DNA of 58,725 nucleotides from a virus (Duplodnaviria; Caudoviricetes): positions 1 through 58,725 of the IMG/VR virus record IMGVR_UViG_3300048672_000976, one strand, 5' to 3'. Each line of letters opens with the position of its first letter. Position 1 is the first letter of the stretch. Of the stretch, positions 5,524-32,927 are shown one piece after another. The notes under the pieces are model-generated. The model made no database searches and was not told the origin of the DNA. It worked only from the letters and a program-made list of their open reading frames with translations. The position numbers and the translations under genes are program-made.

Positions 5524-7662
5524 TTAAAAATCTAATTTCACAGCAAATACTTGTGTTCCAACTCTAGGTATTGGTTTACTTGTTTTTGCAATTACTAAAG
5601 TATCTTTATTAGCATCCAATAATGAAATTTCAGTAATCATTGGATTCATTGATAAATTATCATTTTTTGTTGGATTTTGCGACGTTGTGAATTTACCATC
5701 AGGCAAATTTATTAAAAATTTCATTTCTTCAATATCAGTTGCCCTAACTAATCTAATACTACCAGGAAATGGTTGTTCATCACCAAATTGCGGCGATAAA
5801 TTTGTTACATCATTTGATGATTGGTCGCCTAAATAATTACTAGATAAACTTGAGAAATGATTTTCTAAATCAAATAATGTTCCACTATTATATTTAGATT
5901 CATTAATTATAAATGTTGTTCCAGTTAATGATGATAACGTACTTCCACCTGCCTCTGTTGTGAAATCCATATATAACCAATTATCGGGTATTGGTGAATC
6001 ACCATCAATGGTTTCTTGTATTAAAATATGAAATGTATCTGCGGTTAAACCACCTATAAATCCATCCAATGTATTTAGAATTGTAGTAAATTCGTTTCCA
6101 AATTTAACACCTATATTTGATGGTGTTGTTATACCATCAATTTTTGAATAATAATTACATGGTAATGAATTTAATTCACCATCCGAATCAAATTTAAGTA
6201 AATAAGTTACCCAAAAAGTTTGGCCTGTTGAATTTATTAGTGATGTACTATCATCTGAATGTAAAATTGATAATTTTGGTGCTGGTAATGTATATTTTCT
6301 ATTTGAACGATAATCTAATATTGCCACTAATTCTTCATCATCAAAAACTATTATTTTTTTATCAACAAAGACTTTACCAACTTTATTATTTGATTCATCT
6401 AACAAATATCTAAATTTAATTTTTGATTTTTCATTATAAATTGATTTAACATAAAAATCATCTTCCCCCATAACAAATTTAGCCCCAATCGTTGTTCCTG
6501 TATTTCTATGATAACTGATAAATGGAATATAAACTTCAAAATAATCATTATCACTTATTGGGTCACCATTTATATCATCAATTATTGATATATCTTCACC
6601 ACTTATACCAATTTTACCACTAATATAATCATCATAAGTAAAAAATCTATCTGTGTTATTTGGTATATCTCCTACTTCTGAGAAATGAATTATTGCTAAA
6701 CATTTTTGTTCCTTTAATGTGATAGTTTCATTAAAACTATTTTTATATGTTGTCGGGTCAATTGTTCCACCTGTATAATTAATAAATGTTTGTCCTGTTG
6801 AACCATAGCCCAAATATTCCTTTGTTGAAATGTATTTGTTACTAGTGTATCCTGATAAATTTTCATCCGTGGAACTAACATCTGAACCGATAGGTTTAAT
6901 CCCCCAAACAACATTTAATGACCATGGGTTATGTTGTTCTTCACTATCAGGTAATATTGGGATACACGTTTCTGATGTATTTGTTAAATCAATTTCCAAC
7001 TCACATTTGTTACTAATAACATTACCATATCCTGTTATTGATGAAAGATCTGGCGTTTTTCTATCTAATGTTAATGATTGTGTTGTTCCTGATGTGGCAC
7101 CTGTAACACCCAATACTTTATAAATTAAACCATTCGTTGCCCCCGATATATATTTAATGTCACCATTGACATCAAAACTATTAAATGCTAAGGTTATATA
7201 TTCATTTGCTGTATATGTTGTTCCTGTTGCTTTAGTTATATTTAATATTGTACTTCCAGATATTTCTGAAAAATCAATACTATTTGAAAGACATTGTATT
7301 GTTGTTCCTGTTGTACCATCATATTCAACATAATTTGAAACAAACCCAGCTGGACCCATAACATTGCGAATTACTTCAGTTGTTGAACCTGTAATCGGAA
7401 TACCAAATATTGTTGAATCTGGTTCATATAAAAAAGGATATTTTAATTCATTGTCTTTATCTAATGGTGCGAAAACTCCTTGATGTGTAAACCCATTTGT
7501 TACACTACTCTTTATATTTGAAAATGGGTTACTATATACAAATTCGGAATCTCCAATATTAAAGAATTTAATATTAAAATCACCTTTTGCTATTGAATTT
7601 CTTCCTTTTTGTGTTATTCTTGCTGATAAATACTCAGAATTATTTTTATCTAAAAAACTCAT
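5524..7662 (-). CDS. Virion structural protein (baseplate/tail-associated)
   Basis: C-terminus ITEISLLD..KDTLVIAKTSKPI...FAVKLDF resembles a tail/baseplate terminal domain. N-terminal ARITQKGR. S/T/G-rich and located in a structural block. Confidence 0.6.
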   Translation of the reverse strand: MSFLDKNNSEYLSARITQKGRNSIAKGDFNIKFFNIGDSEFVYSNPFSNIKSSVTNGFTHQGVFAPLDKDNELKYPFLYEPDSTIFGIPITGSTTEVIRNVMGPAGFVSNYVEYDGTTGTTIQCLSNSIDFSEISGSTILNITKATGTTYTANEYITLAFNSFDVNGDIKYISGATNGLIYKVLGVTGATSGTTQSLTLDRKTPDLSSITGYGNVISNKCELEIDLTNTSETCIPILPDSEEQHNPWSLNVVWGIKPIGSDVSSTDENLSGYTSNKYISTKEYLGYGSTGQTFINYTGGTIDPTTYKNSFNETITLKEQKCLAIIHFSEVGDIPNNTDRFFTYDDYISGKIGISGEDISIIDDINGDPISDNDYFEVYIPFISYHRNTGTTIGAKFVMGEDDFYVKSIYNEKSKIKFRYLLDESNNKVGKVFVDKKIIVFDDEELVAILDYRSNRKYTLPAPKLSILHSDDSTSLINSTGQTFWVTYLLKFDSDGELNSLPCNYYSKIDGITTPSNIGVKFGNEFTTILNTLDGFIGGLTADTFHILIQETIDGDSPIPDNWLYMDFTTEAGGSTLSSLTGTTFIINESKYNSGTLFDLENHFSSLSSNYLGDQSSNDVTNLSPQFGDEQPFPGSIRLVRATDIEEMKFLINLPDGKFTTSQNPTKNDNLSMNPMITEISLLDANKDTLVIAKTSKPIPRVGTQVFAVKLDF

Positions 7663-7683
7663 ATTTTTAAACTATTTATTTTA

Positions 7684-10416
7684 TTATTGTGATTCAATTA
7701 GTACTTGTAATTTAAAATTCTTCATTACTGTACATTTATTTGGGCCATATTTATATGATTTGAATTTAACTTTATCCACCCCCTCATTATTTGTAAAAAA
7801 CTCAAAAGAAATTATTGGCGACATGATTGTTGTACCTGTAATTCCTGAATACCCAATTATATCACCATATACATTATCTTTACCTACGTTTTCACGAACA
7901 TATCCGTTAACATTATTAGTAATGAAAATTAAATTGGTTAAAGTTACATCCCATGATTGTTTTAATGTAACATAATTTACAGGTAGTGTTGTTTGTGTAT
8001 ATATTGAGGAACCACTATATACTACATTATCAATGTTCAATAATGGATAAAACTTAAATTCAGTATGTGTCGGCTCCTCATTAATTAAAGATTCAAAATC
8101 TGGATACCTATCATCAATAATTTCAAATATCTGACATGGCTTTTTATATTTATATTTACAACGTCCGAATTTACCATTTTCAATGATGTTTCCACCTGTC
8201 CATAATGAACTAGATGGTATAAATTGGTCAACAATATGTACCCAATATGGGCTCATTTTATCAATAAATTCATTAACAGTAACAAAATCATAAGGTACAT
8301 CACATAATTCAACATAGTCATAATATATCTTCTTTAAATCGAAATATGATGTGTCATATTTTACTGTATTAGATTTTTTAATTGATTTAGTGAAAATAAC
8401 ATCAATATATTCAGCAAATGTTAGGCCACTTTGTGGTAACATATTACCAAATGTTAAATTTAATGACCTAGATTGTCGATAAATATCATAATCAATTGTT
8501 TGTGATGGTGATAAATGAACACTAAGATTTTTTCTATTTAATACTAAATTTGTATCTACTTTAGCTTTTTTATTATCAATACTTGATTTTAACCCAAAAC
8601 CATAATTTAATCCGGGTAATTGCTTAAAATTATTAAAATAATCTTCGCCGTAAGTAAATGGTTTATTTTTTGTTTTAGTATATTTTGTTCTACCTGTTAA
8701 AATAGAATTTTCATAGTCAATCTCATTTAATGATCTATGTTCCAATGTTGATTTATACCAACCAGCACCTTTTTGAAAAAATATATTACCATCAGTACTC
8801 GTCACTTTTTTTGGTAATCCAAATTCATCAATTGGGTAATCACTTCTATTTAAACTTACCGTGGTTATCGTGTTTCCTGTACTATATGTTACACCTGATG
8901 ATGTTTGAGTTATACCTGTTATCATTATAGTATTTGAAATACCATTAATTACATCGTAAATATCATCTTCTAATGTTGATATGTTTGGTAACATGTCAAT
9001 ATTATAAACATATTCATCAATTTTTATCATTGGCTCAGGTGCACCTAAGAATCTTAAAAAAAAGTTTAATGAATTTCTAGTACCTTTGGATTTATAAATA
9101 TGTGATAAATTAACCAACATTCTTCGATAAAACTCATGTTCTGATTCAATTAAATTCTTCCCAATTGTTAAACCACCATATGAACTGTTTTGTCTATTGT
9201 AGAGTACATCATTTAAACTTTTTTCGTCAAAAAGATTTATGGTACTTAATCCTAAATTATTTGATAAATTTTTTAATAGTGCATCAGGTAAATTATTTAT
9301 TCCATCATAACTAACATGTCGCATATGTGCAATATTATCAATGTATTTCTTTACACTATCAAAACTTTGGCCATATAATTGAAAAATTGATTCTGCATGT
9401 TTATCTTCCGTATCAAATTCAAATAATTGTGGTGATGTTAAAAATCTTACAATTATATTTGATTTATAATCGTCGATTTCTTCTGCCAAAGTACTTAATT
9501 TATTAATAAATTGTAAATATTCAATACCAACTATTTGTATATTTCTATTATCTTTAGATAATGGCCAATTTAATTCAACACTTACAATATCAGTTCCTGA
9601 ATCATCAAAACTATCTCTAGGTACTTTAAATGATGAAGTATAAATTGGATTTGTTTCCCTATTTAATAATTGTGACTCCAAATCATCCAAATTATCATAA
9701 AAATTTTCAGTTATTTCATTATTTGGCCTAATTATTAAATCTTCACTTATTTCTGTTAATTCACCAAATGGATTACCTTTAACTTTTAATGTTATAATAT
9801 TGTTTATATTTGGTTCGATATAATTTATTATATCATATGTTTTATCATTATATTCTAATGTGTAGTTTTTATAAATTGAATAAAAATTTCTATTAGGGTT
9901 TTCAACTTCATTAATTGTGTTACTATTTGGTTTTTTTAATAAAATACCAAATGGGTTATATATTATGGAATATTCAATGTTAAATGTTGTCGTTCTATCT
10001 AATTTATTGTAAGTAATATTAAATGCTGTATTTAAACTATCCCTCACTATACTAGTATTATCAACTAAAATAATGGCAGGAAAATTTTTAATAATTCGAT
10101 TAATCGACACATTAATTCTTTGTTTCAATGAACCAAATAATGAACGGCCAGCATCATTTTTACCGCCATTGAATTTTATTTTTTCTTCTTGCTTTTCAAG
10201 TATTGTTTCAGATAAATCATCCAAAGTAACAAAATCGGAAAATGGTGATGTCACAAATGATTTACTATCTCTATCTACTATTTCTCTATCAATAGTAAAA
10301 TTTGCATTGGTTAATTGGCTTGTTCCATCTGTTATCTGAACACCAACTAAATTATCATTAAATGTTTCTAATCCACTACTTACTTGACTTGGTACTTTAT
10401 ATCTAACTTTCTTCAT
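7684..10416 (-). CDS. Baseplate wedge/tail protein with P2 gpI-like segment
   Basis: LPDALLKNLSNNLG...YRRMLVNLSHIYKSKGTRNSLNFFLRFLG resembles the tail-I/wedge motif. Confidence 0.6.
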   Translation of the reverse strand: MKKVRYKVPSQVSSGLETFNDNLVGVQITDGTSQLTNANFTIDREIVDRDSKSFVTSPFSDFVTLDDLSETILEKQEEKIKFNGGKNDAGRSLFGSLKQRINVSINRIIKNFPAIILVDNTSIVRDSLNTAFNITYNKLDRTTTFNIEYSIIYNPFGILLKKPNSNTINEVENPNRNFYSIYKNYTLEYNDKTYDIINYIEPNINNIITLKVKGNPFGELTEISEDLIIRPNNEITENFYDNLDDLESQLLNRETNPIYTSSFKVPRDSFDDSGTDIVSVELNWPLSKDNRNIQIVGIEYLQFINKLSTLAEEIDDYKSNIIVRFLTSPQLFEFDTEDKHAESIFQLYGQSFDSVKKYIDNIAHMRHVSYDGINNLPDALLKNLSNNLGLSTINLFDEKSLNDVLYNRQNSSYGGLTIGKNLIESEHEFYRRMLVNLSHIYKSKGTRNSLNFFLRFLGAPEPMIKIDEYVYNIDMLPNISTLEDDIYDVINGISNTIMITGITQTSSGVTYSTGNTITTVSLNRSDYPIDEFGLPKKVTSTDGNIFFQKGAGWYKSTLEHRSLNEIDYENSILTGRTKYTKTKNKPFTYGEDYFNNFKQLPGLNYGFGLKSSIDNKKAKVDTNLVLNRKNLSVHLSPSQTIDYDIYRQSRSLNLTFGNMLPQSGLTFAEYIDVIFTKSIKKSNTVKYDTSYFDLKKIYYDYVELCDVPYDFVTVNEFIDKMSPYWVHIVDQFIPSSSLWTGGNIIENGKFGRCKYKYKKPCQIFEIIDDRYPDFESLINEEPTHTEFKFYPLLNIDNVVYSGSSIYTQTTLPVNYVTLKQSWDVTLTNLIFITNNVNGYVRENVGKDNVYGDIIGYSGITGTTIMSPIISFEFFTNNEGVDKVKFKSYKYGPNKCTVMKNFKLQVLIESQ

Positions 10417-11339
10417 TATACATTAGTTATGTTATCTAAATTCAATGTTTCATCAATATCTGTTCTTTCTTCCCTAACTTCATACAATGTTTCACTAAAC
10501 TGATCTTTTATTTCATATAAATTATATTGCTTATAAATGTTATTATCTTTATCATAAATTGTGTAAATACCAGGCGTGATTGCTTTACTTTGATTACCAT
10601 AAAGTGCATTAGCTAGTGTACTTGCATCATGTTCAACCATATCAATTTCTATTGTGGTTGGATTAACAAATGTGTTAGATAAGATAATTTTTTGACTAGG
10701 TTGACCGATAAAAGGTACAACATTTGGTCTAGTTGATGGTGATGAGGATGGCGTTATTGTTAAAAATACCAAATTAGAAACCTGATCAGTATATTGATAT
10801 CTAATTGCTTTATCAGTTGTACTTGATAAATTAGAAGTTATTGGCGTACAATAAAATGATGACGTGATTACTCTATATGTGTTAGGTATTTTAGTTTTAC
10901 CATCATTTGTGTTAATATATTCAACACGGTATCCAACTAATCCTTGTGGCGTGAATTTACTTCTATCTTCCGACGGTACATTATTTAAATCAATAATTAA
11001 ACCTCTTACAGATGGTAATGAAGCCAATACACCACAATCAGTTATTGTAGTTCTAATTTGTTTAGGTCTAATATGTAATGTGTATATACCCAATTCAGAA
11101 AAATCATCGGCATTTAATTTTAAATTATATAAACCACCTAAAATTTCACTATTTGGTGCGGATGTATCATCAGTTGTTTCCGTATTATGATATACAGGTG
11201 TTAAAATATCTGTTGATATTAACTTTTTTAATGTTACGGTTTCTGTTGTTGATCTGGTTGATGAATAATGATAAAAAATATCAATATCATCGGGTGATAA
11301 ATCTGCTGGGCGTATAATCCCATATGAACCAATTGACAT
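10416..11339 (-). CDS. Putative virion structural protein
   Basis: Translationally coupled (TAATG) to the next gene; beta-rich; preceded by TATTTAT. Confidence 0.55.
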   Translation of the reverse strand: MSIGSYGIIRPADLSPDDIDIFYHYSSTRSTTETVTLKKLISTDILTPVYHNTETTDDTSAPNSEILGGLYNLKLNADDFSELGIYTLHIRPKQIRTTITDCGVLASLPSVRGLIIDLNNVPSEDRSKFTPQGLVGYRVEYINTNDGKTKIPNTYRVITSSFYCTPITSNLSSTTDKAIRYQYTDQVSNLVFLTITPSSSPSTRPNVVPFIGQPSQKIILSNTFVNPTTIEIDMVEHDASTLANALYGNQSKAITPGIYTIYDKDNNIYKQYNLYEIKDQFSETLYEVREERTDIDETLNLDNITNV

Positions 11340-11374
11340 AAATTAAATTTGTTTTATTATAAATAAATATTACC

Positions 11375-11893
11375 TTATTGTTTTTTAACTGTGTAATATC
11401 CGTTTCCGTACTTAGTTAACATATCAATATTATCAACCTCGCCTAATCTTAAATTCATTTCCATTACACTTTGATTACCTCTTTCTATGAAAACATCAGA
11501 AAATATTGTTGGTTGCTCAATAAAACCTAAAAAATGCTCATTTCTCGTTATTACTTGTTGAAAAACTTCCTCTTTTGTGAAACCACTAGTACTACCCATT
11601 ATCATTGTATATCCTTCCGGATAATCCTCATAATAGATATTATCAATTGTATAGCCACTAACATTTCCATTAATAGTTACACCACTATATTGATTTGTAC
11701 CATATTTTTTCAATTCAGATATTTTACTTTGGCCGATAGAATTATAATATGTGGTACCTGTAAATGATGTATAACCTGTATTAATAGAATAATCTAAATT
11801 AGTATAGTAACTTTGATCAATTGTTTCTGTTTCACCAGATAAATTTAAGTAATATGGAATAGTAAATGTAAGTGTTCCTGACTCTATAAGCAT
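11375..11893 (-). CDS. Putative virion protein (possibly the C-terminal half of a split gene)
   Basis: C-terminal DVFIERGNQSVMEMNLRLGEVDN motif; six [ST]GxT motifs in 172 aa. Confidence 0.55.
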   Translation of the reverse strand: MLIESGTLTFTIPYYLNLSGETETIDQSYYTNLDYSINTGYTSFTGTTYYNSIGQSKISELKKYGTNQYSGVTINGNVSGYTIDNIYYEDYPEGYTMIMGSTSGFTKEEVFQQVITRNEHFLGFIEQPTIFSDVFIERGNQSVMEMNLRLGEVDNIDMLTKYGNGYYTVKKQ

Positions 11894-11950
11894 AATATAT
11901 TGATATATATTATTAAATATAAAGAAAAAAATATTATTAATAAATGATTA

Positions 11951-12922
11951 TTAAATTAGTTCAAATGAAACAATTATCGATGGAAATTGACCATCACTTA
12001 ACCCAATACTATTTAAATATCTTGTTGGAAAAGTATATGATGTTGAATTTGGTGTTGAAATAATTGTTGAGGTTCCACCATAAGTAAATGATTCTATTTT
12101 TGTAATTTTATAACCCGAATCTGCCGTTATTTGAATACCTGATAAATTATATCCTGTTGTATTAATTAATAAGTTATAATTTGTTGTAAAAACTGCATTA
12201 TTTCCTGTTGAATTTAATGTCATAGTTCCACCACCTAAATTGCCATCAAAATTGCGTAATTCAAAATAATATTTATATTCTGTTGTTGGGGTTGGAGTTG
12301 GGGTTGGAGTTGGGACCGGTGTGATATATAAATCATCACATTGTTGGTAAGTTAATGTGGCCGTTTTGTATTCATTACTTGTTGAACCTGAAATATTGGT
12401 TATATTAAAACTAAACGTATATGTCCCTTGGAATAAAACAATTTTACCTATTTTATAACCAATACCTGTTTGTGTCAATGTTAATGTTTCAGGAACAGAT
12501 ACTGGTGTGTAAATATCATTCGGTGTAACTGTTATTGTTGATGTTATAATAGCATTACTGTCAAATATATTATCCAAAGTTAATTCCAAATATGGATAAC
12601 CATTTAAACCAAATAAATCAGTTTCATCTATACTATTACAATCAGATTTAATAGTTAATATATCTGAATAACAATCTATATCTGTTATCTCATAGCCTTC
12701 AGTTAATTGATTATACGTGACACCTGTTATATATGTCGTTATTGTAGGTTGTTCATTACTAACTTTAACAATACCTGAGCATAATGATGGACCATCAATA
12801 CTAATAGGATTGACTTTATTAGCATCCAAAGATAAACCACTTGATGGTGTTGACATTATTGTTATTGTGAATGGACCAATATCTTCTCTTGGTGTCTCAC
12901 TAAATCTTACTATTAAATTCAT
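11951..12922 (-). CDS. GPF-module fibre/decoration protein
   Basis: Start taken at MNLIVRF (12922). N-terminal IGPFTI module, short TP linker, and a C-terminal YKYYFELR domain shared with the 2805-aa protein. Confidence 0.6.
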   Translation of the reverse strand: MNLIVRFSETPREDIGPFTITIMSTPSSGLSLDANKVNPISIDGPSLCSGIVKVSNEQPTITTYITGVTYNQLTEGYEITDIDCYSDILTIKSDCNSIDETDLFGLNGYPYLELTLDNIFDSNAIITSTITVTPNDIYTPVSVPETLTLTQTGIGYKIGKIVLFQGTYTFSFNITNISGSTSNEYKTATLTYQQCDDLYITPVPTPTPTPTPTTEYKYYFELRNFDGNLGGGTMTLNSTGNNAVFTTNYNLLINTTGYNLSGIQITADSGYKITKIESFTYGGTSTIISTPNSTSYTFPTRYLNSIGLSDGQFPSIIVSFELI

Positions 12923-12933
12923 AATTTTAAATA

Positions 12934-15900
12934 TTAACATAAATTATTATATGCATCTAATCCTATTACATAATTACTACGACCTGATTCAACACCACAT
13001 ACCGTTTGTGTGACATAATATTGGAAGAAACTTTGTAATGTTGTGACAGTAAATACTGTTGAACCACTATTATTAACATTTACTTCAGCAAGAACATCAT
13101 TTAAATTATCTCTATAAAACTTAACTGTACAACCATTACCAACGGTAATTAAATTAGTAACCGATACAACATAATATCCACCATTTTCATTTCTACATAT
13201 TGACATTACTGGAGTATCTAATATTGGATTAGCAATAATAACACTATTAATTACAGTAAACGAACCTGCACAGGTATTAACAATCACTTTAACTTCCACA
13301 TTACCCGGACATATTGTTCTAGTGAATGATGTTGAACTATTTGAAGTAATAAGACTTTCTAGCAATATACCATCTTTATAAAGTTCATAATGAAAATCAA
13401 TATATGAACCATTAAACCCATCAACACTACAATTTATTATTGAATTACCATATGATGGATTATTGGTATGTAATGTTGCTGTGGTTGCAGCATTACAACA
13501 ACTACCAATTGTTGGTTGTGTTCCACCCACATCAATACCATTTACTTGGTAATGTCCATACGATGCCGAACATTGGTTATTATCTTGGTAAATTGTATAT
13601 TCAACACCACCACTACATGTTATATTTCCAGTACTGGTCCAACTAGGGTTAGTATTAATTGTATTTGACGGATTACTAGCATATGATGTACCATTCATAT
13701 AATATTGATTACCACCAAAACAAGCATTACTATTTTGATAAACAGTATATGATGTTACAACACCATTGCTGCATGTACTATATGTTCCAACATTAATACT
13801 ATAATTTGCTGAAGTATCAATAGTGTTTGATGGATTATATGAATATGTTGTCCCATTCATTAAATAATTTTGGCCACCACTATAACAAGCATTACTGTTT
13901 TGATAAACAGTATATGATGTTACAACACCATTACTACACGTACTATATGTTCCAACATTAATACTATAATTTGCTGAAGTATCAGTACCACATGTGGCCG
14001 AACATGTTTCCCAAACCTCAGCACTTCCAACATTATTACCTGTACAATTATATTTTAATTGACGATATTGGGTTGTTCCCACACAATAATAATCATAATA
14101 TGTTCCACCACAACTTTCATCACAATCACAAGTTGATGATGAAATAATTCTATAACTAAATGTTCCACATTTATTTGTTGTACCTTGACGTTTTTCACAA
14201 CCAACACAATATGGTGAACCATAATCATAGAAATATAATGCATTATATAAAATGATATCATATAACGTATCGGCAACAGTTGTTGTTGAATCACCATTCC
14301 ATGCGACACCATTTAATATCAATCCACAAATATTACTACTATAAATAATTCTAAAAATTGTACCGGCAGGATACGTTTGTGTTCCATTTTTGAAATTTAA
14401 ATCAGCAACCCAAGCACCATTTTGATAAAATTGTATTGCGTATTCATTAGTATTAGGGCTATCTTGTGGATTTAACGCAATAGTACTATATGACGGTGGC
14501 ACGATAATTGGTGATTTAGTTGGTGTAACCGTTACTGTTGGCGTAACCGTTCTAGTTGGTGTTACGGTGTTTGTTGGGGTTGGTGTTGGGGTTAAATTAG
14601 TTGTTTTAGTTGGTGTTGGTGTTAATGTTTTAGTTGGCGTAACCGTACTAGTTGGTGTTGGGGTTAAATTAGTTGTTTTAGTTGGTGTTAGTGTTAATGT
14701 TTTAGTTGGCGTAACCGTTACTGTTGGTGTTGGTGTAACACATAACCCAAATGTTGGTGTACTTGTTAAAACATATGATGGTTGACCTGTATAATTAATT
14801 AAATATTGTAAATATGTTGATGAAAAACGATTAATATCAATAAAAACATCGTAACTATAACCATTATAACATGTTTTTTGTTGAACACCAAATGGGTCAA
14901 AAAATGGATACCATTCAGGATCATATGATGTAACTGTACAAAATGGTTGTGATGAAATCGTAACACCACTAATAAATGTTGTTCTGATGCTATGTGGTAC
15001 TTCGATAAATAAGAATGTGTTAAAGTTAATGTAACCATCTCTACGATAAAATCCATTATCAATATGGAAATTACTATAAACCGCAGTTGGGTAACCACCT
15101 ATTTTACATATATCATTATCAAAATAACCTAAATCATAAATATAATACATAAACACCGGTGTTGTTGGTGTAATAGTATTAGTTGGTGTAACTGTTTTTG
15201 TTGGTGTAATGGTTGGTGTAACTGTTTTTGTTGGTGTAACCGTATTCGTAGGGGTAACGGTATTTGTTGGTGTGACCGTTTTTGTTGGTGTGACCGTTTT
15301 TGTTGGTGTAACAGTTCGTGTTATTGTTGGGGTTACAGTCATTGTTGGTGTTGGTGTTGGTGTTCGTGTTATACATGTTGAAATATCAAGAACAACACCA
15401 TCTCTACTAATTGTATAAACAACACCATTAATTGAATAATAACCTTGTGTTGCAATATTTGTTGATAATATTAATGCTGATTTATATACTATATTATCAA
15501 CTTGTAATGTTGATGAACCTTGCCAATATAGGTTAAAAATGTTTGTATAATTATAACAAGCATCATATTGCGATGTACTATTAAATTGTAAATTCAATAA
15601 TTCACGGATTGGCGTTGTTGGTGTCGGGGTATTAGTTGGTGTAACTGTGTTTGTTGGTGTTATACTAGGCGTAACTGTTGGTGTAACTGTTTTTGTTGGT
15701 GTAATTGTACTAGTTGGTGTTTTTGTTGGTGTAACTGTAACTGTTGGGGTTACTGTTTTAGTTGGTGTAATGGTACTAGTTGGTGTAATCGTACTTGTTG
15801 GTGTAACTGTTCTTGTTGGTGTAATTGTAGTTGTCGGTGTAACTGTTTTGGTCGGGGTTATACTAGGGGTAACAGTATTTGTTGGTGTTACTGTGTTTGT

Positions 15901-21351: not shown

Positions 21352-21378
21352 TAATTATAAATAGTTTCTTTTCAATTA

Positions 21379-22707: not shown

Positions 22708-22719
22708 TAAAAAAATAAA

Positions 22720-24192: not shown

Positions 24193-24194
24193 TT

Positions 24195-26273
24195 TTAATT
24201 ATATTTCTTATAAAAATTACAGTTTATTTTAAAATTAGAATATTTACTCATTTTTGAATCAAAAAAATCTTCTGTCATATCAATAATAAATTCATGAACT
24301 TCATTATTATCTATGTTATAATATTTTGGCATACCACCATTAATTATTAAATCACCATCGGGAATTGTTGTACCATTCATATATTTCAATAAATTAATCT
24401 CACTTCCTGTTAAGTTAAATTGTAATTGTTGGTTTACTTTATTAATATCACTTCTATTTTGATAAATCAATTTATATTTCATCATTTTTACATAACGATT
24501 TCCATTATCAGGATGATTATTATCTCTTATTGGACCATAATCACTAGTGTAACCAAAACCGCCTATAGTATCGCATAATTCCCAAATAACATTACCCTCA
24601 GCATTATTTTCAAATTCAATTAATTTCATATATACTTTAGATTTTTCTGAACCATGATACGTAATTGAATGTGTTGGAAAATCAACGCCTATATATTTTA
24701 TACCGTTAATATCTACTTTACCTGCAATATTATTAATACCACCATTAATATTTAATTCGGGGTAATTCGTACCTTTTTGTCCATAGAATCTAAATGCTGA
24801 TATACCTTCAGAAATTATACTATTTTGTGAATTAATATTATGTAAATAGGTCCAATAATCACTACCATATCTATATCCTTGCCATCCTAACCACCATGAA
24901 TTAAAATTATTCTGATCATTATTATCATAAGAATCAAAAGCCACTTCAATATTTTGACAATTTGTTATTATATCTTTTTTTGTTGGTGTTACATTTGGTG
25001 TTTTAGATGGTGTTTGAGTGATAATAGGTCCGTTTGTTGAATCAATTCCGATTAAAATTTGAAAAGAGGCATTAAATTCAGTTATTATATTTTCTATTCT
25101 CTTATAATATTCATCGTTTTTATTATTGTTATTTAATTCGGTAACTTCAACTGATATTATCAATTCAATTAACGAACCTCTAAACATATTTGGTATTGTG
25201 TATCCATTTGGTAAACCTATTATTTTTTTTAATCGGTTAATTGTAAAATATGGTTTGCAATTATAATTATGTTCACCTTGGTTATATACAAAAGAACCAT
25301 TGTTTTTTATTTGCTCATCAAAATTACCATTAAAGAATTGATAATTTAATGTTAAACCATCAGGTTCAATATTCAACTTATGTACCCAATAATTTCCTGC
25401 ACCACTTAAATATCCCCAACCATCAATTTTATCAACCTTAGTATAATAAGGAAATAAAATTTTTGTATTAACAACAGATGCATTGGGTACTATTAAATCA
25501 CCAATTTCGGTTACTTTACCATCAACTATTTTAACATATTTAGCTATATATTTTTCAAAATAACACATATACCCAGTAATATTAAAAAGAACACCATCAC
25601 CATTATATATTCCGCAATTTATTGCTAAACCATTAGATTTGTTTATTTTTACATTTTCAATAATATTTCTTACTGTTGATGCTTCAGGAATTATAAAATT
25701 ATATAATTCTGTTAAGTCTTTATAATACTCTAAATTTGGGATATTACCACTAAATCGTTGATATGTGGTGTAAACTAAAAATGGTAAATCATATAATTTA
25801 ATTACTTGTGGCGGTCCTGTTGGCGTACCACTATTGGTTGGTGTTATAGTATTGGTTGGGGTAATTGTTGCGGTAACGGTTACTATACTACTATTTGTTG
25901 GTGTTACCGTCATTGTGGGTGTAATTGTAGGTGTAACGGTTACTGTATTGGTTGGTGTTACCGTAATTGTGGGTGTAATGGTTACAGTATTGGTTGGAGT
26001 TACAGTAATTGTGGGTGTGACTGTTGTTTTTGAAATGTTATAATAAATATATTCTACTTGATTTTCTAACCCACTAGTATTATGTAGAATTATTTTTTTA
26101 CTATATTCAGGAACAACAATTAAAACACCAACGTTGGTTAATAAATCATAATCAATATTTGTGGCTAAATTATATCCTCCATAAATAAATGGTACATTAT
26201 TCAACACATCATAATAAACATTAAATGGACCACTTGATGTTGATGTTTTTGCTAATTTTATTTCTATTATCAT
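24195..26273 (-). CDS. GPF-module fibre protein with duplicated C-terminal head
   Basis: SSGPFNVYYD N-terminus, TP stalk, and a ~530-aa C-terminus paralogous to that of 26276..30340. Confidence 0.65.
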   Translation of the reverse strand: MIIEIKLAKTSTSSGPFNVYYDVLNNVPFIYGGYNLATNIDYDLLTNVGVLIVVPEYSKKIILHNTSGLENQVEYIYYNISKTTVTPTITVTPTNTVTITPTITVTPTNTVTVTPTITPTMTVTPTNSSIVTVTATITPTNTITPTNSGTPTGPPQVIKLYDLPFLVYTTYQRFSGNIPNLEYYKDLTELYNFIIPEASTVRNIIENVKINKSNGLAINCGIYNGDGVLFNITGYMCYFEKYIAKYVKIVDGKVTEIGDLIVPNASVVNTKILFPYYTKVDKIDGWGYLSGAGNYWVHKLNIEPDGLTLNYQFFNGNFDEQIKNNGSFVYNQGEHNYNCKPYFTINRLKKIIGLPNGYTIPNMFRGSLIELIISVEVTELNNNNKNDEYYKRIENIITEFNASFQILIGIDSTNGPIITQTPSKTPNVTPTKKDIITNCQNIEVAFDSYDNNDQNNFNSWWLGWQGYRYGSDYWTYLHNINSQNSIISEGISAFRFYGQKGTNYPELNINGGINNIAGKVDINGIKYIGVDFPTHSITYHGSEKSKVYMKLIEFENNAEGNVIWELCDTIGGFGYTSDYGPIRDNNHPDNGNRYVKMMKYKLIYQNRSDINKVNQQLQFNLTGSEINLLKYMNGTTIPDGDLIINGGMPKYYNIDNNEVHEFIIDMTEDFFDSKMSKYSNFKINCNFYKKYN

Positions 26274-27855
26274 TTTTAATTATATTTATTGTAAAAATTA
26301 CAGTTCATTTTGAAATTAGAGTAACTACCACTTAATGAATCATAGAATTCTTCTGTCATATCAATAATAAATTCATGAACATCATTATCATAAATATTAT
26401 AATACTTAGGAATACCACCATTAATTATTAAATCTTCATCAGGAATTATTGTACCATTCATATATTTCAATAAATTAACCTCACTTCCTGTTTTATTAAA
26501 TTGTAATTGTTGATTTACTATTGATGTGTTACTATTATTTTGATAAATCAATTTATATTTCATCATTTTCACATAACGATTTGCATTATCTGGGTGATTA
26601 TTATCTCTTAATGGACCATAATCACTAGTGTAACCAAAACCACCTTTAGTATCACATAATTCCCAAACAACTCTACCCTCAGTATTATTTTCAAATTCAA
26701 CTAATTTCATATATACTTTAGATTTCTCTGAACCATGATAGGTAATTGAATGTGTTGGTAAGTCTATTGTTATATATTTTACACCGTTAATATCAACTTT
26801 ACCTGAACGATTATTTGTTCCACCATTAACATTTAATGATGGATATGTAACGCCATATTGTCCATAGAATCTAAATGCTGATATACCATCTGAAATAGGG
26901 CTATTATATGAATTTATGATGTTTAAGTAGGTCCAATAATCACTACCATAACTATATCCTTGCCATCCTAGCCACCATGAATTAAAGTTATTCTGATCGT
27001 TATTATCATAAGGTTCAAAAGCAACTTCAATATCTTGACAATCTAATGTTACAGGTGTTGGGGTTGGGGTGATTATTGGTACAACAGTCGGCTCAATACC
27101 TATTAATATTTGGAAACTAGCATTAAATGTTGTTATTATATTTCTTATTCTAAGTTGATATGCTTCATCTAATACTGAAGGTGTTGGATATTCAATAGGC
27201 TCAATTGAAATTACTAACTCAATTAATGAGCCTCTAAACATATCAGGTATAATGTAACCATTTGGTAAACCATATATCTTATTTAATCTATTAATTGTGA
27301 AATATGGCCTACATGTATATATATAATCACCTTGAGTGTATAAGAAAGTCCCACCTGTATTTATTTCATTATCATAATTATTATTAACAAATACATAATT
27401 AATAGTTAAACCATCTGATTCTATATTCATTTTATGGTACCAAAAATCACCATTATCACCTAAATAACCCCATCCATCATCATTAAATACTGTTGTGTAA
27501 TATGGAAATAATATTTTTGTTCCAATGACACCAGTACTCGGTGCCGTTAATGTACCAATTTCAGTAACAGTACCACTAATTATTTTAACATATTTAGGTA
27601 TCCCTAAATTAAAATATAACATATAACCTGTTATATTGAAGTGACCGGCATTTTCGTTATAAATTTTACTACCAATTACCAAACCATTAGATGTGTCAAC
27701 TTTTACTGTTTCAATAACATTACTTACCATAGATGCTTCAGGTATTATGTAATTATATAATTCAGTTAAATCATTATAATAGTTTAATGTGCCTGTATTA
27801 TTAGTAAAATACCAATATGATGTATAAACCATATTACTAACACCATATAATTGTA
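24195..27855 (-). repeat. Diverged direct duplication, ~1.6 kb (24195-~25800 vs 26276-~27855)
   Basis: Long identical peptides such as [38 protein letters not shown] and [15 protein letters not shown] occur in both copies. Confidence 0.95.
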
Positions 27856-30340
27856 ATCCTGATGATGATGGTGTTACAGTAATTGTTGGGGTTACAGTTC
27901 TAGTTGGTGTATATGTTGGAGTTGGTGTTGGTGATTTAAATGGTGTTGAGGTTACACTTGGTGTTGGGCTTGGTGATTTAGTAATTGATGGTGTAACCGT
28001 TCTGGTTGGTGTTATTGATGGCGTAACCGTTCTGGTTGGTGTAACCGTCATTGTTGGTGTTGGTGATTTAAATGGTGTTGTTGTTACACTTGGTGTTACT
28101 GTTCTTGTCGGTGTATGTGTTGGAGTTACTGTTGGAGTTGCTGTTACTCCGCCTGTAACTTCAATATAACCTTCAACTATACAATCAATATCAACTAACG
28201 ATGTTGATGTAACAGTTGGTGTTACTGTTGTTGTTGGGGTTGGGGTAACCGTATTTGTTGGCGTTAATGTTGGTGTAGGGGTTGGTGATTTAAATGGTGT
28301 TGTTGTTGGGGTTAATGTTGGTGTAGGGGTTGGGGTTGGGCTAATAGTATTTATACAGTAAACAATAAATGACCATAATGTTTCAATTTCACTACTAGGT
28401 GTTACAACAATTTTAACTGTGTTTGCCGAACCATCTATTGTATATGTTTTACGTTTTAAATCAGTATTTCCGTCATTATCATTAATTGATTCTAACAATG
28501 TTGTTGTTGGGTAATATACATCAAAAGTATCACCTAATTGATTACTTTCATAATCAAAAACTAATGACCCAGCAACATAATCTACCGGTATTAGGAAAAC
28601 TAACGGACTTGCCGAATAACCACCATTAATTCTCATACCGCAAGTATATACTGGTGTTGCTGTTATTGAAGGTGTGACCGTTCTTGTTGGCGTTATAGTT
28701 GGTGTTAACGATATTGATGGTGTTATAGTTGGTGTAGGTGTTGGTGTTGGTGTTTTTGTTGCTAATGGTGTAACTGTTAATAAACAAGACACAATAAATG
28801 ACCATAATGTTTCAACACTATTATTACTTATTACGGTTACGTTAATTATATTACTACTACCATCAACATTAAAAGTTATTGAACTAGGTGATGTTCCTGT
28901 AATATAACCACCAGATAAAACCTCATTATTATATGATACGATGAAAACATCACTTAATGTATTCCCAGTATAACTGAAACTGAACGTACCTTCCCTTTTA
29001 CTAATTGGAATATTGTAGCTTAATGGTGTCTCTGAATATCCTCCACTAATTGTTTCATAACATGACAATTCTATATTCGTTGGTGTAACTGTGTTTGTTG
29101 GTGTTACTGTCATTGTTGGCGTTAATGTTGAGGTTGGGGTAATCGTTGGGGTTACTGTTGAGGTTGGTGTACTCGTTGGTGTTATCGTGTTTGTTGGTGT
29201 TATACTTGGAGTTGGGGTAGGTGTAGTATAAAGTGATGGTGTTACACTTGGTGTTATTGTATTTGTTGGTGTTGGAGTTGTGGTAACTGTGTTTGTTGGC
29301 GTAACAGTACTAGTTGGTGTTATACTTGGTGTTGGGGTAACTGTGTTTGTTGGTGTTACCGTACTAGTTGGTGTTATACTTGGAGTTGGGGTAGGTGTAG
29401 TATAAAGTGATGGTGTTACACTTGGTGTAGGGGTTGGTTCAACAATTGCAGCTTCAATATCAAACCCACATAATATTGTCGGTGTAATGCTTGGCGTTGG
29501 TGTTAATGTTGGTGTAATGCTTGGTGTTAATGTTGGTGTAGGGGTTAATGTTGCCGTAATGCTTGGTGTTGGTCTTGGCGTTCTTGTTGGTGTTACTGTT
29601 TTTGTTGGCGTTGGTGTTACTGTTTTTGTTGGCGTTATACTTGGGGTTACTGTTGGTGTTACTGTTTTTGTTGGCGTTATACTTGGGGTTGGGGTTGGTG
29701 TTGGGAATAACGTACAATCAATCATTATTGATTTAATTAATACACTATTGGTCCATGGTGCATCTAAGGTGATTTTTATGTTTTTTAAACCATTTGTTGC
29801 ATATGTTTTTGTTGCTTTATAACAATCAACTGTTTGACATAACCCATAAACACCGATAGGTGATGTTGTTCCATCACCCCAATCAACGGTAAATGTTATA
29901 TCACCTAAGCCTCTTAATTTCTTTAAATTTGTTGTGTTAGTAACTATTACACTATTACAATCTATTTCATATGTAAAATTAACATCATTTTCAGTTCCTA
30001 TATTACCATCAAACCCCACCATTTCACCAAATTCATCAATTTTTGATTCTAAAAAAATAGGTATTTGGTAGTCATCATATATTACTGAGTTTATTTGTGA
30101 AGTTGAGCCGGTAATACTATTCCATATATTACCAATTGGTGTTGCCCATTTATAATAACCTTTATTAATATATTCATCGGAATTATTATATACTGTGGTA
30201 CCTGTGGTAACATTTGGATTAATTAGATCTACCCAATCAACTAAATTATCTTCACCATCAATCCATGTTTGGCCACTTAATGATAATAATTTAACATTTG
30301 GTATATTTTTACGTCTAATTGTATATTTTAACTTCTTCAT
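26276..30340 (-). CDS. PKD-domain, Thr/Pro-stalked fibre protein (1354 aa)
   Basis: [12 protein letters not shown]/Ig-like signature, TP stalks, two copies of a C...[10 protein letters not shown] domain, and the duplicated C-terminal head. Confidence 0.65.
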
Positions 30341-30346
30341 TAATAA

Positions 30347-31159
30347 TTACGATGCTCTTGTTTCATAAAATTTTATTGGGTTATTATTATCTTTTCCTAC
30401 TCTATCCCCTGTGGTACCATCATATTTATAATATTCATATGAATGATTATTTTTATTTAATACAACTTTATAATACATATCTTGTTGTTCAATAATTTCT
30501 TTATTAACTGTTAACCCTGATGTTGTAAAATCGGCTATTGTACCATCTTTAGCATTAAAAAATTTTGCGGTAACAAAAAACACATTACTATCTAATGATG
30601 TACCACTCAAAACAGTATCATCTTGAAACCAAAAAAGATAAATCAATTCTTTGTTTTTATAATTGGTACCATTAAACACCGGAATAAAAATATTTTGCAT
30701 TAGTGTATTATAAAAAAATTTTTCACCCATTGGTATGTATATATTTTTTGAAAAAACTAATTTACGATTTATACGTGTTGGCGGTTCATCATTTGGTGTT
30801 TTAAAAAATTCTAACTTAAAAAAACTTTCTGTTGTTTGTTTTAACATTCTTGAATTTTCTTTTGGTGTTATACCAACTAAACTATAATCTAAACCATTTG
30901 AATAGTTACCGTTATTATCAATAAAATAAAATTTAAACCAAATATCCGATTGTAAATCATTTGTATTATTTGTTAAACCACTATATGGCGTATGAATATA
31001 TCTAATTGTTTCATAATTCTTAATTGGGTCAATGATAGTTTCTAAAATTTCATCTTCAAACTGTTTCATATTTTCATCCCACCCTAAATTAGTTAAAAAT
31101 GTTTGTTCTTGATTTAAAACTATATTATAACTTTCATTCTTTTTCTTTAATATCTCCAT
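30347..31159 (-). CDS. Putative virion structural protein
   Basis: Located in the baseplate operon; aromatic beta-rich (SFFKLEFFKTP, FFVTAKFFNAKDG). Confidence 0.55.
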   Translation of the reverse strand: MEILKKKNESYNIVLNQEQTFLTNLGWDENMKQFEDEILETIIDPIKNYETIRYIHTPYSGLTNNTNDLQSDIWFKFYFIDNNGNYSNGLDYSLVGITPKENSRMLKQTTESFFKLEFFKTPNDEPPTRINRKLVFSKNIYIPMGEKFFYNTLMQNIFIPVFNGTNYKNKELIYLFWFQDDTVLSGTSLDSNVFFVTAKFFNAKDGTIADFTTSGLTVNKEIIEQQDMYYKVVLNKNNHSYEYYKYDGTTGDRVGKDNNNPIKFYETRAS

Positions 31160-31160
31160 T

Positions 31161-32927
31161 TTAACAGAATTTTATACCGGTGAATATATTATTAAAATTA
31201 TTTATACCATCTTTTTTATTTATTGAATCAACTTCATTTCTTAAATAAAAATTAATATTTGATTTTACGTAATGTATATTATTTAAAAATGGGAAATTGG
31301 TCCCATTACCATCTGAATCCACATATCCATGGGGATATAAATCACGCCATTTCCAAATTTTATCAACTATATCATAATACGTATTATCCGGCAAATTATA
31401 AACCTCATTTGTGTCTGAACTTTCAATATATGGCGATAATTCTCGTATTTTTATCCGATAATGTGGTTGATAAAATAAACCATATGGATTTGTAAGTGTG
31501 GCACCTGAAAAAAATAAACTATTTGTTTGTTGATGGTCAAAAATTTCATAATTACAAGTTATTTTATGAAAAGATTCACTAATTACCCTTTCTTTTAATT
31601 CTATTTTATTATATTCAACAAATGCACCATTTAAAACAGTACCTATTGGTATTGTGGTTCCACTAACAAAAGTTTTACCTGAGATTGTAAATGTTTCTCC
31701 ACTTAAACCATTTTCTATTGAGGTTTCATTATCAAAATAATTATCTATCCAAGTATCATGAAAATTAAATTTATAACCAACCTTTGGTGGGTAATTAAAA
31801 TAACCATTACCATTTCTAAAAATTGTGGTTAAATAAAGTTCGAATGGTGAGAAGCCTAAATTATTTGTTAATCCATTAATATTAATTGGGTTCTTAAAAT
31901 CAAATATTATATTCTCCATTCGATTTCTTTCAACAATAACATCATTATCACCTGAACTATTTTCTATGATTATCTTTTTTTCATCTTCAAAAATTGAACT
32001 TTCAAACCCAATATTATCCATTATATAATCATCAATATTTGTTAATGTTTTATGTTTATGTACATAATAATTTGAGATTGTATGTGATATATTATTTTTA
32101 TCCAAACATCTTTTTCCAAAAACCACACCTTCCAATACTTGATTAGGTTTAAATTGTGATTTATATAATTTAATTACATAACTTTTTGAGTTATATGTTT
32201 CATTCCCAACACCATCAATATAAAATGTATTATCATTTGTTTCTATTGAACCGTCTAATGTTCCACCAGATAATACAATATATTCACTTTCATTTATACC
32301 ATGTGGCACAGGGCTTATTAATGTATAGAATTTACCATCATCAATTACACGAAAAGGAATACCATCACTTGATGTAAATTGATATGACGTACCACCTGAT
32401 AACGTATATTCCATAGGGTAGTCTTCGTCTTTATCAAAAACATAGGTTAAATATAAATTCCAATTATGATATGGTGCCGTAATTGTTGTTATTGTTGTAT
32501 GTTTTCTCGAACCGACATATGTTATTGTTGGATTATATTCAACACCTAATGTTGTACCTGTTTGTGGTGTCCTTTTTTCACGATATAAATCCCTTCTAAG
32601 GAACGCAAATTCATTATATGGTAGATAACCTGAGAAATCGTTATTTGTGCCGTCACCATTCAAATATAACGTTTCTTCTAAGTTTGGGTATGTTGTTGTT
32701 CCACTAAACATGTTACGGAAAATCATTTTTAATTTTCCATAAATTTTATATTGTGTACTTTTGTTACGTTCAATATCATTTAACTCAGCAACATCAATAA
32801 TAATATTTTTATCGCCCTCTCTCAATAAAGATTGTGTGGTTTCTAAATTTAATTGTAATAATAATTCATCATCTTTAGCCCCTTTATATCTTTTATTTGG
32901 TAAAATTATTTCTTTTTTTTCTTCCAT
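31161..32927 (-). CDS. Putative virion structural protein
   Basis: Coupled to its neighbours; WKWRDLYPHGYVD...NFPFLNNIHY C-terminus; eight [ST]GxT motifs. Confidence 0.55.
   Translation of the reverse strand: MEEKKEIILPNKRYKGAKDDELLLQLNLETTQSLLREGDKNIIIDVAELNDIERNKSTQYKIYGKLKMIFRNMFSGTTTYPNLEETLYLNGDGTNNDFSGYLPYNEFAFLRRDLYREKRTPQTGTTLGVEYNPTITYVGSRKHTTITTITAPYHNWNLYLTYVFDKDEDYPMEYTLSGGTSYQFTSSDGIPFRVIDDGKFYTLISPVPHGINESEYIVLSGGTLDGSIETNDNTFYIDGVGNETYNSKSYVIKLYKSQFKPNQVLEGVVFGKRCLDKNNISHTISNYYVHKHKTLTNIDDYIMDNIGFESSIFEDEKKIIIENSSGDNDVIVERNRMENIIFDFKNPININGLTNNLGFSPFELYLTTIFRNGNGYFNYPPKVGYKFNFHDTWIDNYFDNETSIENGLSGETFTISGKTFVSGTTIPIGTVLNGAFVEYNKIELKERVISESFHKITCNYEIFDHQQTNSLFFSGATLTNPYGLFYQPHYRIKIRELSPYIESSDTNEVYNLPDNTYYDIVDKIWKWRDLYPHGYVDSDGNGTNFPFLNNIHYVKSNINFYLRNEVDSINKKDGINNFNNIFTGIKFC

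Follow-up and report, generated by a model that had tools for sequence, protein, structure and literature searches.

Glycosylation of phage particles is, to our knowledge, rarely documented, and we know of no dispersed sequence sequon in them. This study deals with a candidate for such a sequon, the tetrapeptide [ST]-G-x-T ([ST]GxT), which recurs in several proteins encoded by a virus of the Caudoviricetes (IMG/VR record IMGVR_UViG_3300048672_000976). The whole stretch of DNA that was analysed, positions 1 to 58,725 of that record (a genome fragment of 58.7 kb), is called here the window. A preliminary description, made from the letters of the window alone, had noticed the tetrapeptide by manual count and had read it as a recognition sequon for a virion modification such as O-glycosylation, or else as a recurring beta-turn.

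In mycobacteriophages, O-glycosylation of the virion is carried out by a phage-encoded glycosyltransferase, and the sites lie in C-terminal Ser/Thr-rich tails; in chlorovirus PBCV-1, the sites are atypical N-linked sequons. Both systems resemble the one proposed below in that capsid or tail proteins are modified by a glycosyltransferase of the virus itself, independently of the host secretory pathway, but neither shows dispersed [ST]GxT copies over many virion proteins. Sequons based on Ser-Gly are found in eukaryotes: xylosyltransferase recognizes S-G-x-G, and the sequon of EOGT includes [ST]-G. In the Bacillus protein BclA, the GPT repeats of a collagen-like (GxT)n region are O-glycosylated on Thr. 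The likeness is that a hydroxyl residue beside Gly serves as acceptor, and two adjacent GxT triplets read TGxT. The enzyme families, compartments and contexts are, however, different, and the phage copies are isolated instead of forming triplet arrays. The general O-glycosylation motif of Bacteroidota, D-[ST]-[AILVMT], offers a precedent for a three-residue sequon spread over many surface proteins, but it differs in sequence and is served by a periplasmic, host-encoded machinery.

Among phages, the jumbo myophage XacN1 possesses its own glycosyltransferases, and at least two glycoproteins have been reported in its virion, although the passages of the paper at hand give neither sites nor a sequon (PMC5852040). 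Those passages also mention that the PBCV-1 capsid is glycosylated by virus-encoded enzymes (PMC5852040). The XacN1 relative CM1, considered below, shows no [ST]GxT excess. As for enzymes, a member of the GT60/PF11397 family adds alpha-linked N-acetylglucosamine (GlcNAc) to Thr of Trypanosoma cruzi mucin peptides and is related to a Dictyostelium enzyme (PMC3769586). According to the sections of that paper at hand, these eukaryotic proteins start mucin-type O-glycosylation on Thr-rich peptides (PMC3769586). Relatives of the window encode one or two homologs as well as Thr-rich virion proteins. The known acceptors are, however, Thr runs (KPPTTTTTTTTKPP) and not dispersed [ST]GxT copies (PMC3769586); the (TPTxTV)n arrays of the phages described here come closer to them. 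Furthermore, the eukaryotic GT60 enzymes described there act in the Golgi or in microsomes (PMC3769586), whereas a putative phage enzyme would need to work in the bacterial cytoplasm.

The manual counts proved exact: the window proteins of 712, 910, 172 and 588 amino acids (aa), named henceforth by their length, contain 13, 7, 6 and 8 copies of [ST]GxT, respectively. Composition-preserving shuffles gave means of 1.19, 0.60, 0.40 and 0.51 copies, and none of 10,000 shuffles reached the observed count in any of the four proteins. Hence, an enrichment with an observed/expected ratio of about 10-15 outlasts the correction for composition, which in the 712-aa protein amounts to 10.1% Ser, 10.4% Thr and 7.9% Gly. 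When residues were shuffled within blocks of 10, 20 or 40, thus keeping local composition, 12 combinations of protein and block size were tested, and the observed count was reached in 0 of 5,000 shuffles with the sole exception of the 910-aa protein at block size 10 (1 of 5,000).

The coupling between the residues of the motif is equally clear. The statement that most SG and TG dipeptides are followed by xT is borne out by 34 of 46 [ST]G in the four proteins, compared with 11 of 117 Gly that have another preceding residue. Broken down by that residue, the fractions are 18/27 for S-G, 16/19 for T-G, 2/17 for N-G and 2/16 for D-G. In the other 24 window proteins examined, where Thr makes up 6.6% of residues, xT follows 5 of 52 [ST]G. 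The same pattern emerged when all residue triplets were scanned without bias in six gapped shapes: SG.T was found 18 times versus 1.29 expected (Poisson p 4e-15) and TG.T 16 times versus 1.44 (p 4e-12), and the next pattern of that shape had a p value of 1e-3.

As had been claimed, the copies are not tandem repeats. Their spacing is irregular, ranging from 3 to 194 residues, some copies being adjacent (for example at residues 187 and 191); neither an extended common sequence nor regular spacing was seen in the DNA or the proteins, and BLASTP among the four motif-rich proteins detected no common domain and no internal similarity. Codons vary among motif copies, and Ser is encoded by both AGY and TCN. 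The signal is therefore located at the protein level, and a DNA-level explanation is ruled out. Low content of guanine plus cytosine (GC), which is about 26% in the window, was also discarded as a cause, given that relatives at 30-36% GC have the motif whereas T4, at 36%, lacks it. The very Thr-rich proteins with Pro/Thr repeats are not enriched either (6 copies versus 11.25 expected). Chance, composition and hidden repeats are excluded.

Outside the four proteins, the three copies that had been seen within ~85 residues of the N-terminus of the 1354-aa protein are present, at positions 22, 46 and 77, and the total of this protein, 5 versus 4.05 expected, is not significant. The 270-aa protein holds 2 copies versus 0.16 expected (shuffle p 0.010) and the 1307-aa protein 3 versus 0.93 (p 0.066). 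In the proteins that serve as controls, xT follows 0 of 7 [ST]G in the gp6-like protein, 0 of 2 in the primase-like protein and 0 of 5 in each of the intein-bearing open reading frames (ORFs) at 44659-46941 and 48440-50320. The absence of the motif from control proteins thus stands; the labels DnaB and RecA that two of the controls had been given were not confirmed, as Pfam matched only intein and endonuclease parts.

The excess extends to homologs. The 712-aa protein has more than 1,448 homologs in the database, and a profile search with its family yielded 641 cluster representatives at 50% identity. Its best 120 homologs contain on average 15.2 motifs (range 6-23) versus 1.3 expected, with xT following 1,821 of 2,838 [ST]G versus 336 of 3,607 other Gly residues. 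In the 172-aa family (120 sequences), the mean is 5.99 versus 0.57 expected, and in the 588-aa family, 149 motifs were counted versus 10.4 expected in the 16 loci that were examined out of 32. As the bit score falls, the observed/expected ratio drops from 9.5 to 5.7 among the 150 representatives listed, yet the excess persists. A further 24 viral or metagenome loci of freshwater and marine origin were inspected, and 22 of them show an excess; the exceptions are locus L117 (0 versus 1.6 expected) and a 2.8-kb piece, L120 (1 versus 1.5).

Other phages offer a different picture. Counts close to expectation were obtained for the structural region of T4 (11 versus 11.6, with 167 [ST]G) and for two 50-kb stretches of the huge phage LR756508, which is the nearest GenBank relative by the gp6-like protein (7 versus 5.5 and 11 versus 6.5; 18 versus 12.0 in total). 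In the Stenotrophomonas jumbo phage CM1, 301 ORFs contain 45 copies versus 55.3 expected. The general occurrence in comparable beta-rich proteins that one would expect of a beta-turn is therefore lacking in T4, LR756508 and CM1. The motif is a trait of one clade and not of phage fibres in general.

Location of the motif within a genome was examined in the relative G002, a 288-kb record with 33.5% GC and an estimated completeness of 92%, in which 304 ORFs were called. The 14 ORFs with the lowest Poisson p, a set picked post hoc, contain 127 motifs versus 17.4 expected, while the remaining 290 ORFs contain 58 versus 54.4. The enriched set is made of homologs of the window fibre proteins, the protein at the gp7 position (11 versus 1.56 expected), a 2007-aa protein, the gp23-like major capsid protein (4 versus 0.6), the tail sheath (7 versus 1.64), a DUF5122 propeller protein and several unknowns; the gp6-like protein has no motif. 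The seven copies of the sheath all fall within residues 121-653, and the Pfam-matched conserved domains span residues 667-941: the motif is formed at 7 of 17 [ST]G in residues 1-660 versus 0 of 4 in the core. Because the excess sits in virion proteins and in the outer sheath, not in the core, the motif marks peripheral, lineage-specific parts of the particle. The confinement to peripheral virion proteins that had been noticed in the window therefore holds in a relative, and it extends to domains of a single protein.

Turnover of sites was followed in an alignment of the 120 homologs, all of which are at least 50% identical to the window 712-aa protein. The motif occupies 91 columns, of which 2 are held by at least 80% of the sequences; 20 reach 20-80%, and 69, including 23 singletons, stay below 20%. 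For thirteen control motifs of similar composition, the number of columns is 7-52 each; misalignment in variable regions may inflate such column counts, but controls are affected equally. New sites arise 2-13 times more often for [ST]GxT than for control motifs, and [ST]GxT outnumbers the reversed motif T.G[ST] and controls of the same composition by factors of 7-180. At position +2, counting from Gly, Thr is preferred over Ser about 10:1 (1,821 versus 178 instances), and x may be hydrophobic or polar, depending on the site. At motif loss, Thr is mostly replaced by Ser, Gly by Ser, Asn, Thr or Asp, and the first residue by Asn or Asp, a spectrum that, judging from the substitutions, fits exposed polar loops.

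Full-length homologs with zero motifs were also detected, namely P0254 (40% identity), P0290 (29%) and P0359 (24%); P0255, at 41% identity, has 15. Locus L117, a metagenome contig of 12.3 kb that encodes a distant relative of the 712-aa protein, contains five consecutive large ORFs in which xT follows 0 of 18 [ST]G, and it is a candidate motif-less lineage. The existence of full-length homologs with no copies argues that the fold does not need the motif. Neither positional conservation nor dependence of the fold, both of which a beta-turn would predict, was found. The fold can do without [ST]GxT, and yet most lineages keep re-creating it.

Pooling of 169 instances from the window and one relative produced the pattern Phi-[ST]-G-x-T-Phi, Phi being hydrophobic. 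Ser and Thr are used equally at position -1 (80 versus 89), and x is Pro in none of the 169 instances, compared with a Pro background of 4.3%. Two properties expected of an O-glycosylation sequon are thus present: over-representation beyond composition, both in the window shuffles and in the enriched ORFs of G002, and an obligatory hydroxyl, as only Ser/Thr at -1 is coupled to Thr at +2.

An AlphaFold2 model of the 712-aa protein, built on a 58-sequence alignment, had a predicted local distance difference test score (pLDDT) of 81.7 and a predicted template modelling score of 0.77. Foldseek comparison of this model with the PDB gave a local match to a Klebsiella phage tailspike (7w1c_C; probability 0.99, 99 columns) and no global match; searches of BFVD and of the ESM Atlas retrieved only an uncharacterised homolog and the protein's own family, respectively. 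The model of the 172-aa protein was poor (pLDDT 55.8). In the 712-aa model, the [ST], G and x positions are coil at 9, 11 and 11 of the 13 sites.

Candidate enzymes were found in relatives. In each of five long relatives, 2-8 matches to GT2 exceed the Pfam cut-off, and 4-9 are obtained at E <= 0.01. G002 harbors two operon-like clusters. One of them encodes an NAD-dependent epimerase/dehydratase, a UDP-GlcNAc 2-epimerase, an FkbM methyltransferase, GT2 genes and Glyco_tranf_2_5. The other encodes two PF11397 (GT60-like, 'GlcNAc') proteins, a HAD/nucleotidyl-transferase fusion and a RuBisCO-large-like ORF. The PF11397 matches have E values of 3.1e-72 (244 bits) and 7.1e-48 (164 bits), the cut-off being 21 bits. 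PF11397 was detected in 4 of the 5 relatives and in none of the 14 control genomes; among its carriers is G001, which of the long records has the 588-aa protein most like that of the window (60% identity). Homologs of the GT60-like protein of G002 occur in 4 of 50,697 phage records (XacN1, Xoo-sp13, CM1 and RAS14), and an annotated glycosyltransferase of XacN1 is 48% identical to it.

Some side observations concern these clusters. The PF11397 pair of G002 lies in a tightly packed plus-strand cluster together with GT2 genes and many ORFs without family (L062 5375-7907; G002:C1:265375-281748), and the presence of a RuBisCO-large-like ORF (E 1e-31) inside a glycan cluster is odd. G001 shows seven 2OG-Fe(II) oxygenase (PF13640) matches, four of them among GT2 genes (G001:C1:37117-44828 and 208556-209372), and the other four relatives show none. 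Prolyl-hydroxylase-like PF13640 genes were considered as part of a clade-wide system, and the idea was discarded as they are present in only 1 of the 5 relatives.

A second type of putative substrate is found in the 2805-aa protein of the window. Its gene contains an 18-bp unit in 41 tandem copies (15629-16350) and 145 more (16862-19457), about 186 in total. The encoded (TPTxTV)n array spans some 1,500 residues broken by globular inserts and is followed by a Cys-rich C-terminal region; Thr makes up 29.8% of the protein. At the equivalent position, G002 has a 5472-aa ORF with 45% Thr. From its sequence, the array looks mucin-like, and it is plausibly a second glycosylation substrate, on which GT60-like enzymes such as those of relatives could act. 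In the portions of T4 and LR756508 that were sampled, there are neither Pro/Thr arrays nor a homolog of GT60.

These data are best read as a selected surface motif, and O-glycosylation is the most concrete mechanism. We propose, with a probability that we place slightly below one half (roughly 0.45), that [ST]GxT is an acceptor sequon for O-glycosylation by phage enzymes; modification of the sites, enzyme and acceptor residue are all things that we infer. Under this proposal, Phi-[ST]-G-x-T-Phi, with x other than Pro, would be kept dense by selection on the exposed, fast-evolving virion proteins of a clade of aquatic jumbo myophages. The motif is carried by baseplate and fibre proteins of the distal region; in relatives, it also occurs in outer domains of the sheath and in part of the major capsid protein. 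Phage-encoded glycosyltransferases would act in the cytoplasm on assembling virion proteins, placing a sugar either on the strictly conserved Thr or on the preceding Ser/Thr, and the outcome would be a glycan coat on the particle. The sequon suggested in the preliminary description thus gains partial support: lineage specificity, dispensability for the fold, fast turnover of sites, exclusion of Pro at x and relatives rich in glycosyltransferases speak in its favour. A broader scenario can be conceived in which a clade of marine and freshwater jumbo phages sugar-coats its particles through a new sequon on capsid, sheath, baseplate and fibres, with sites continually re-created as in a glycan shield, and glycosylates giant (TPTxTV)n fibres in parallel by means of GT60-like enzymes. 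We regard the combination as speculative, and hold it less probable than the sequon itself.

Several observations weigh against O-glycosylation of [ST]GxT. A Pfam scan of 29 of the 34 larger window ORFs found no glycosyltransferase, and the enzyme argument therefore rests on relatives that are only 45-63% identical in fibre proteins; the proposed search for such enzymes has succeeded only there, with GT2 and PF11397. CM1 possesses a GT60-like homolog (45% identity) and seven Pro/Thr-rich ORFs and shows no [ST]GxT excess. The candidacy of the GT60-like enzyme as reader of [ST]GxT is weakened by this case: the enzyme tracks Pro/Thr arrays more naturally than the motif, and the mucin-like arrays are its better match. 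Should [ST]GxT be a sequon, its reader is probably another of the many glycosyltransferases. The motif is also scarce in neighbouring fibre proteins, as those of 692, 490, 442 and 307 aa hold 0, 0, 1 and 0 copies. Its flanks are hydrophobic (97 of 169 instances before and 81 of 169 after the motif, versus a background of 34%), and in the 712-aa model, Thr is the first residue of a strand at 7 of the 13 sites and a helix N-cap at 1. The sites, mapped in this manner to loop-to-strand entries, are as compatible with a structural turn at strand entry as with an exposed loop serving as acceptor, so that the model favours neither the sequon nor the recurring turn that had been offered as its alternative. 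Finally, no sequon of this form came up in a literature search on phage virion O-glycosylation, and we know of none in bacteria or phages.

A structural idiom of the lineage, involving no modification, would account for several of the same facts. Ser/Thr would cap a loop, Gly would adopt a left-handed conformation and the beta-branched Thr would open a strand, the element being inherited and re-used in new surface domains. The defined loop-then-strand setting was indeed observed, on one model, and the coil at [ST]-G-x, the hydrophobic flanks, the avoidance of Pro, the 22 alignment columns in which 20% or more of the 120 homologs have the motif, the replacement of lost Gly by the turn-formers Ser, Asn, Thr and Asp, and the beta-rich nature of the bearer proteins all agree with it. 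Known beta-turn and strand-capping motifs likewise have Gly in a loop right before a strand, hydroxyl residues and hydrophobic flanks. However, turns of the generic kind admit Asn and Asp and appear in all beta-rich proteins, and [ST]GxT does neither: Asn and Asp are not tolerated at -1 despite being at least as good as turn caps, and the beta-rich virion proteins of T4, LR756508 and CM1 show no excess. Homologs of the same fold have zero copies, only 2 of 91 columns are conserved while sites are gained 2-13 times more often than those of controls, and the variation of x between polar and hydrophobic indicates that the local environment is not uniform. In addition, the motif is missing from the non-virion proteins and the conserved cores that these genomes encode. 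A purely physico-chemical turn preference is hard to hold in view of its absence from beta-rich proteins of other phages, the exclusion of Asn/Asp, the dispensability for the fold and the turnover of sites. All in all, we deem the idiom less likely than the sequon, though it is a serious rival and the strongest one.

Another surface function would share with glycosylation the restriction to the virion periphery, the turnover of sites, the lineage specificity and the required hydroxyl residues. The motif might undergo a modification other than glycosylation, for instance phosphorylation or acylation of Thr, or provide a weak multivalent contact with host polysaccharide, with particles or with a decoration protein. 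General Pfam scans, none aimed at these functions, showed no kinase, acyltransferase or decoration protein, and glycosyltransferases are the sole class of modifying enzymes in excess; we consider such a function a good deal less probable than the idiom. As for an artefact of composition, low complexity or hidden repeats, one could invoke the somewhat elevated Ser, Thr and Gly contents and the copies that lie side by side at residues 187 and 191. Against it stand the shuffles of whole proteins and of 10-40-residue blocks, which never approach the observed counts, the rarity of reversed and same-composition motifs, the differing codons, the absence of repeats or common domains in BLASTP and the lack of excess in the Pro/Thr-repeat proteins, and we give an artefact hardly any credence.

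If the O-glycosylation sequon is real, glycosylated virion proteins would be predictable from metagenomes, the 712-aa family alone having more than 1,400 members, and the abundance of glycosyltransferase genes in these jumbo phages would find an explanation. The glycan coat would be a phage counterpart of the glycan shield of eukaryotic viruses, with a bearing on adsorption, particle stability and recognition by grazers or immune systems, and the motif could provide a short tag for engineered glycosylation. Should the motif turn out to be a structural idiom instead, it would represent an unusual, lineage-restricted sequence habit in fast-evolving receptor-binding proteins.

The genes of the window that could be identified with Pfam are of the large T4-like myophage type, and all large ORFs lie on the minus strand (Table 1). 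The gp6-like protein matched Baseplate_J with an E value of 2.9e-4 and 20.7 bits, slightly below the cut-off of 21.1 bits, and tblastn with this protein led to annotated baseplate wedge proteins. Downstream of its gene there are 13 ORFs of 172-2805 aa, which have no Pfam or PHROG family apart from a weak PHROG match of unknown function; the 712-, 910-, 172- and 588-aa proteins match no family in either database. Gene order suggests that the 13 ORFs encode baseplate-distal and fibre proteins, and the assignment of the 712-aa protein to this class draws on the local tailspike match of its model.

Table 1. Coordinates of window features mentioned in the text, with the number of [ST]GxT copies or other remarks.
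Feature	Position	Strand	Remarks
712-aa distal virion protein, last gene of the baseplate/fibre block	5524..7662	-	13 [ST]GxT
910-aa protein	7684..10416	-	7 [ST]GxT
172-aa protein	11375..11893	-	6 [ST]GxT; xT after 6/7 [ST]G
329-aa protein	11951..12940	-	C-terminal module similar to parts of the 2805-aa protein
2805-aa fibre-like protein	12934..21351	-	Thr/Pro array of ~1,500 residues
692-aa protein	24195..26273	-	C-terminal domain common with 1354-aa protein
1354-aa protein	26276..30340	-	N-terminal motifs; Pro/Thr linkers; C-terminal domain common with 692-aa protein
270-aa protein	30347..31159	-	2 [ST]GxT; weak enrichment
588-aa protein, two genes after the gp6-like wedge gene	31161..32927	-	8 [ST]GxT
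1307-aa protein, gp7 position	32927..36850	-	3 [ST]GxT; borderline
gp6-like baseplate wedge protein, conserved core	36905..38737	-	No motif; internal negative control
Intein-bearing ORF	39967..42717	-	Intein/Hint/LAGLIDADG domains
Intein-bearing ORF	42768..44651	-	Intein/Hint/LAGLIDADG domains
Intein-bearing ORF	44659..46941	-	Intein/Hint/LAGLIDADG domains
Intein-bearing ORF	48440..50320	-	Intein/Hint/LAGLIDADG domains
gp25-like wedge protein	window
gp32-like protein, 5'-3' exonuclease and primase-like protein	window

Additional observations were made on the modules of the distal proteins. The 692- and 1354-aa proteins have their C-terminal ~590 aa in common, with 66-68% identity by BLASTP; they look like adjacent paralogous distal modules set on differing N-terminal parts, and [ST]GxT is almost absent from the common domain. 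The 329-aa protein ends in a stretch of ~105 residues that shares 52-53% identity with residues 139-244 of the 2805-aa protein and weakly resembles residues 1511-1608 of that larger protein, a relationship that points to a duplicated globular module. At locus L074 of G002 (G002:C1:101506-102672), the counterpart of the 172-aa protein makes up the C-terminal portion of a protein of 388 aa, whose N-terminus resembles by eye that of the window 1354-aa protein; module shuffling is suggested by this arrangement.

Outside the baseplate/fibre block, Pfam detected intein, Hint and LAGLIDADG homing-endonuclease domains in four ORFs. The genes that bear them, all four within 11 kb, encode both ribonucleotide reductase subunits and two further proteins of the replication region.

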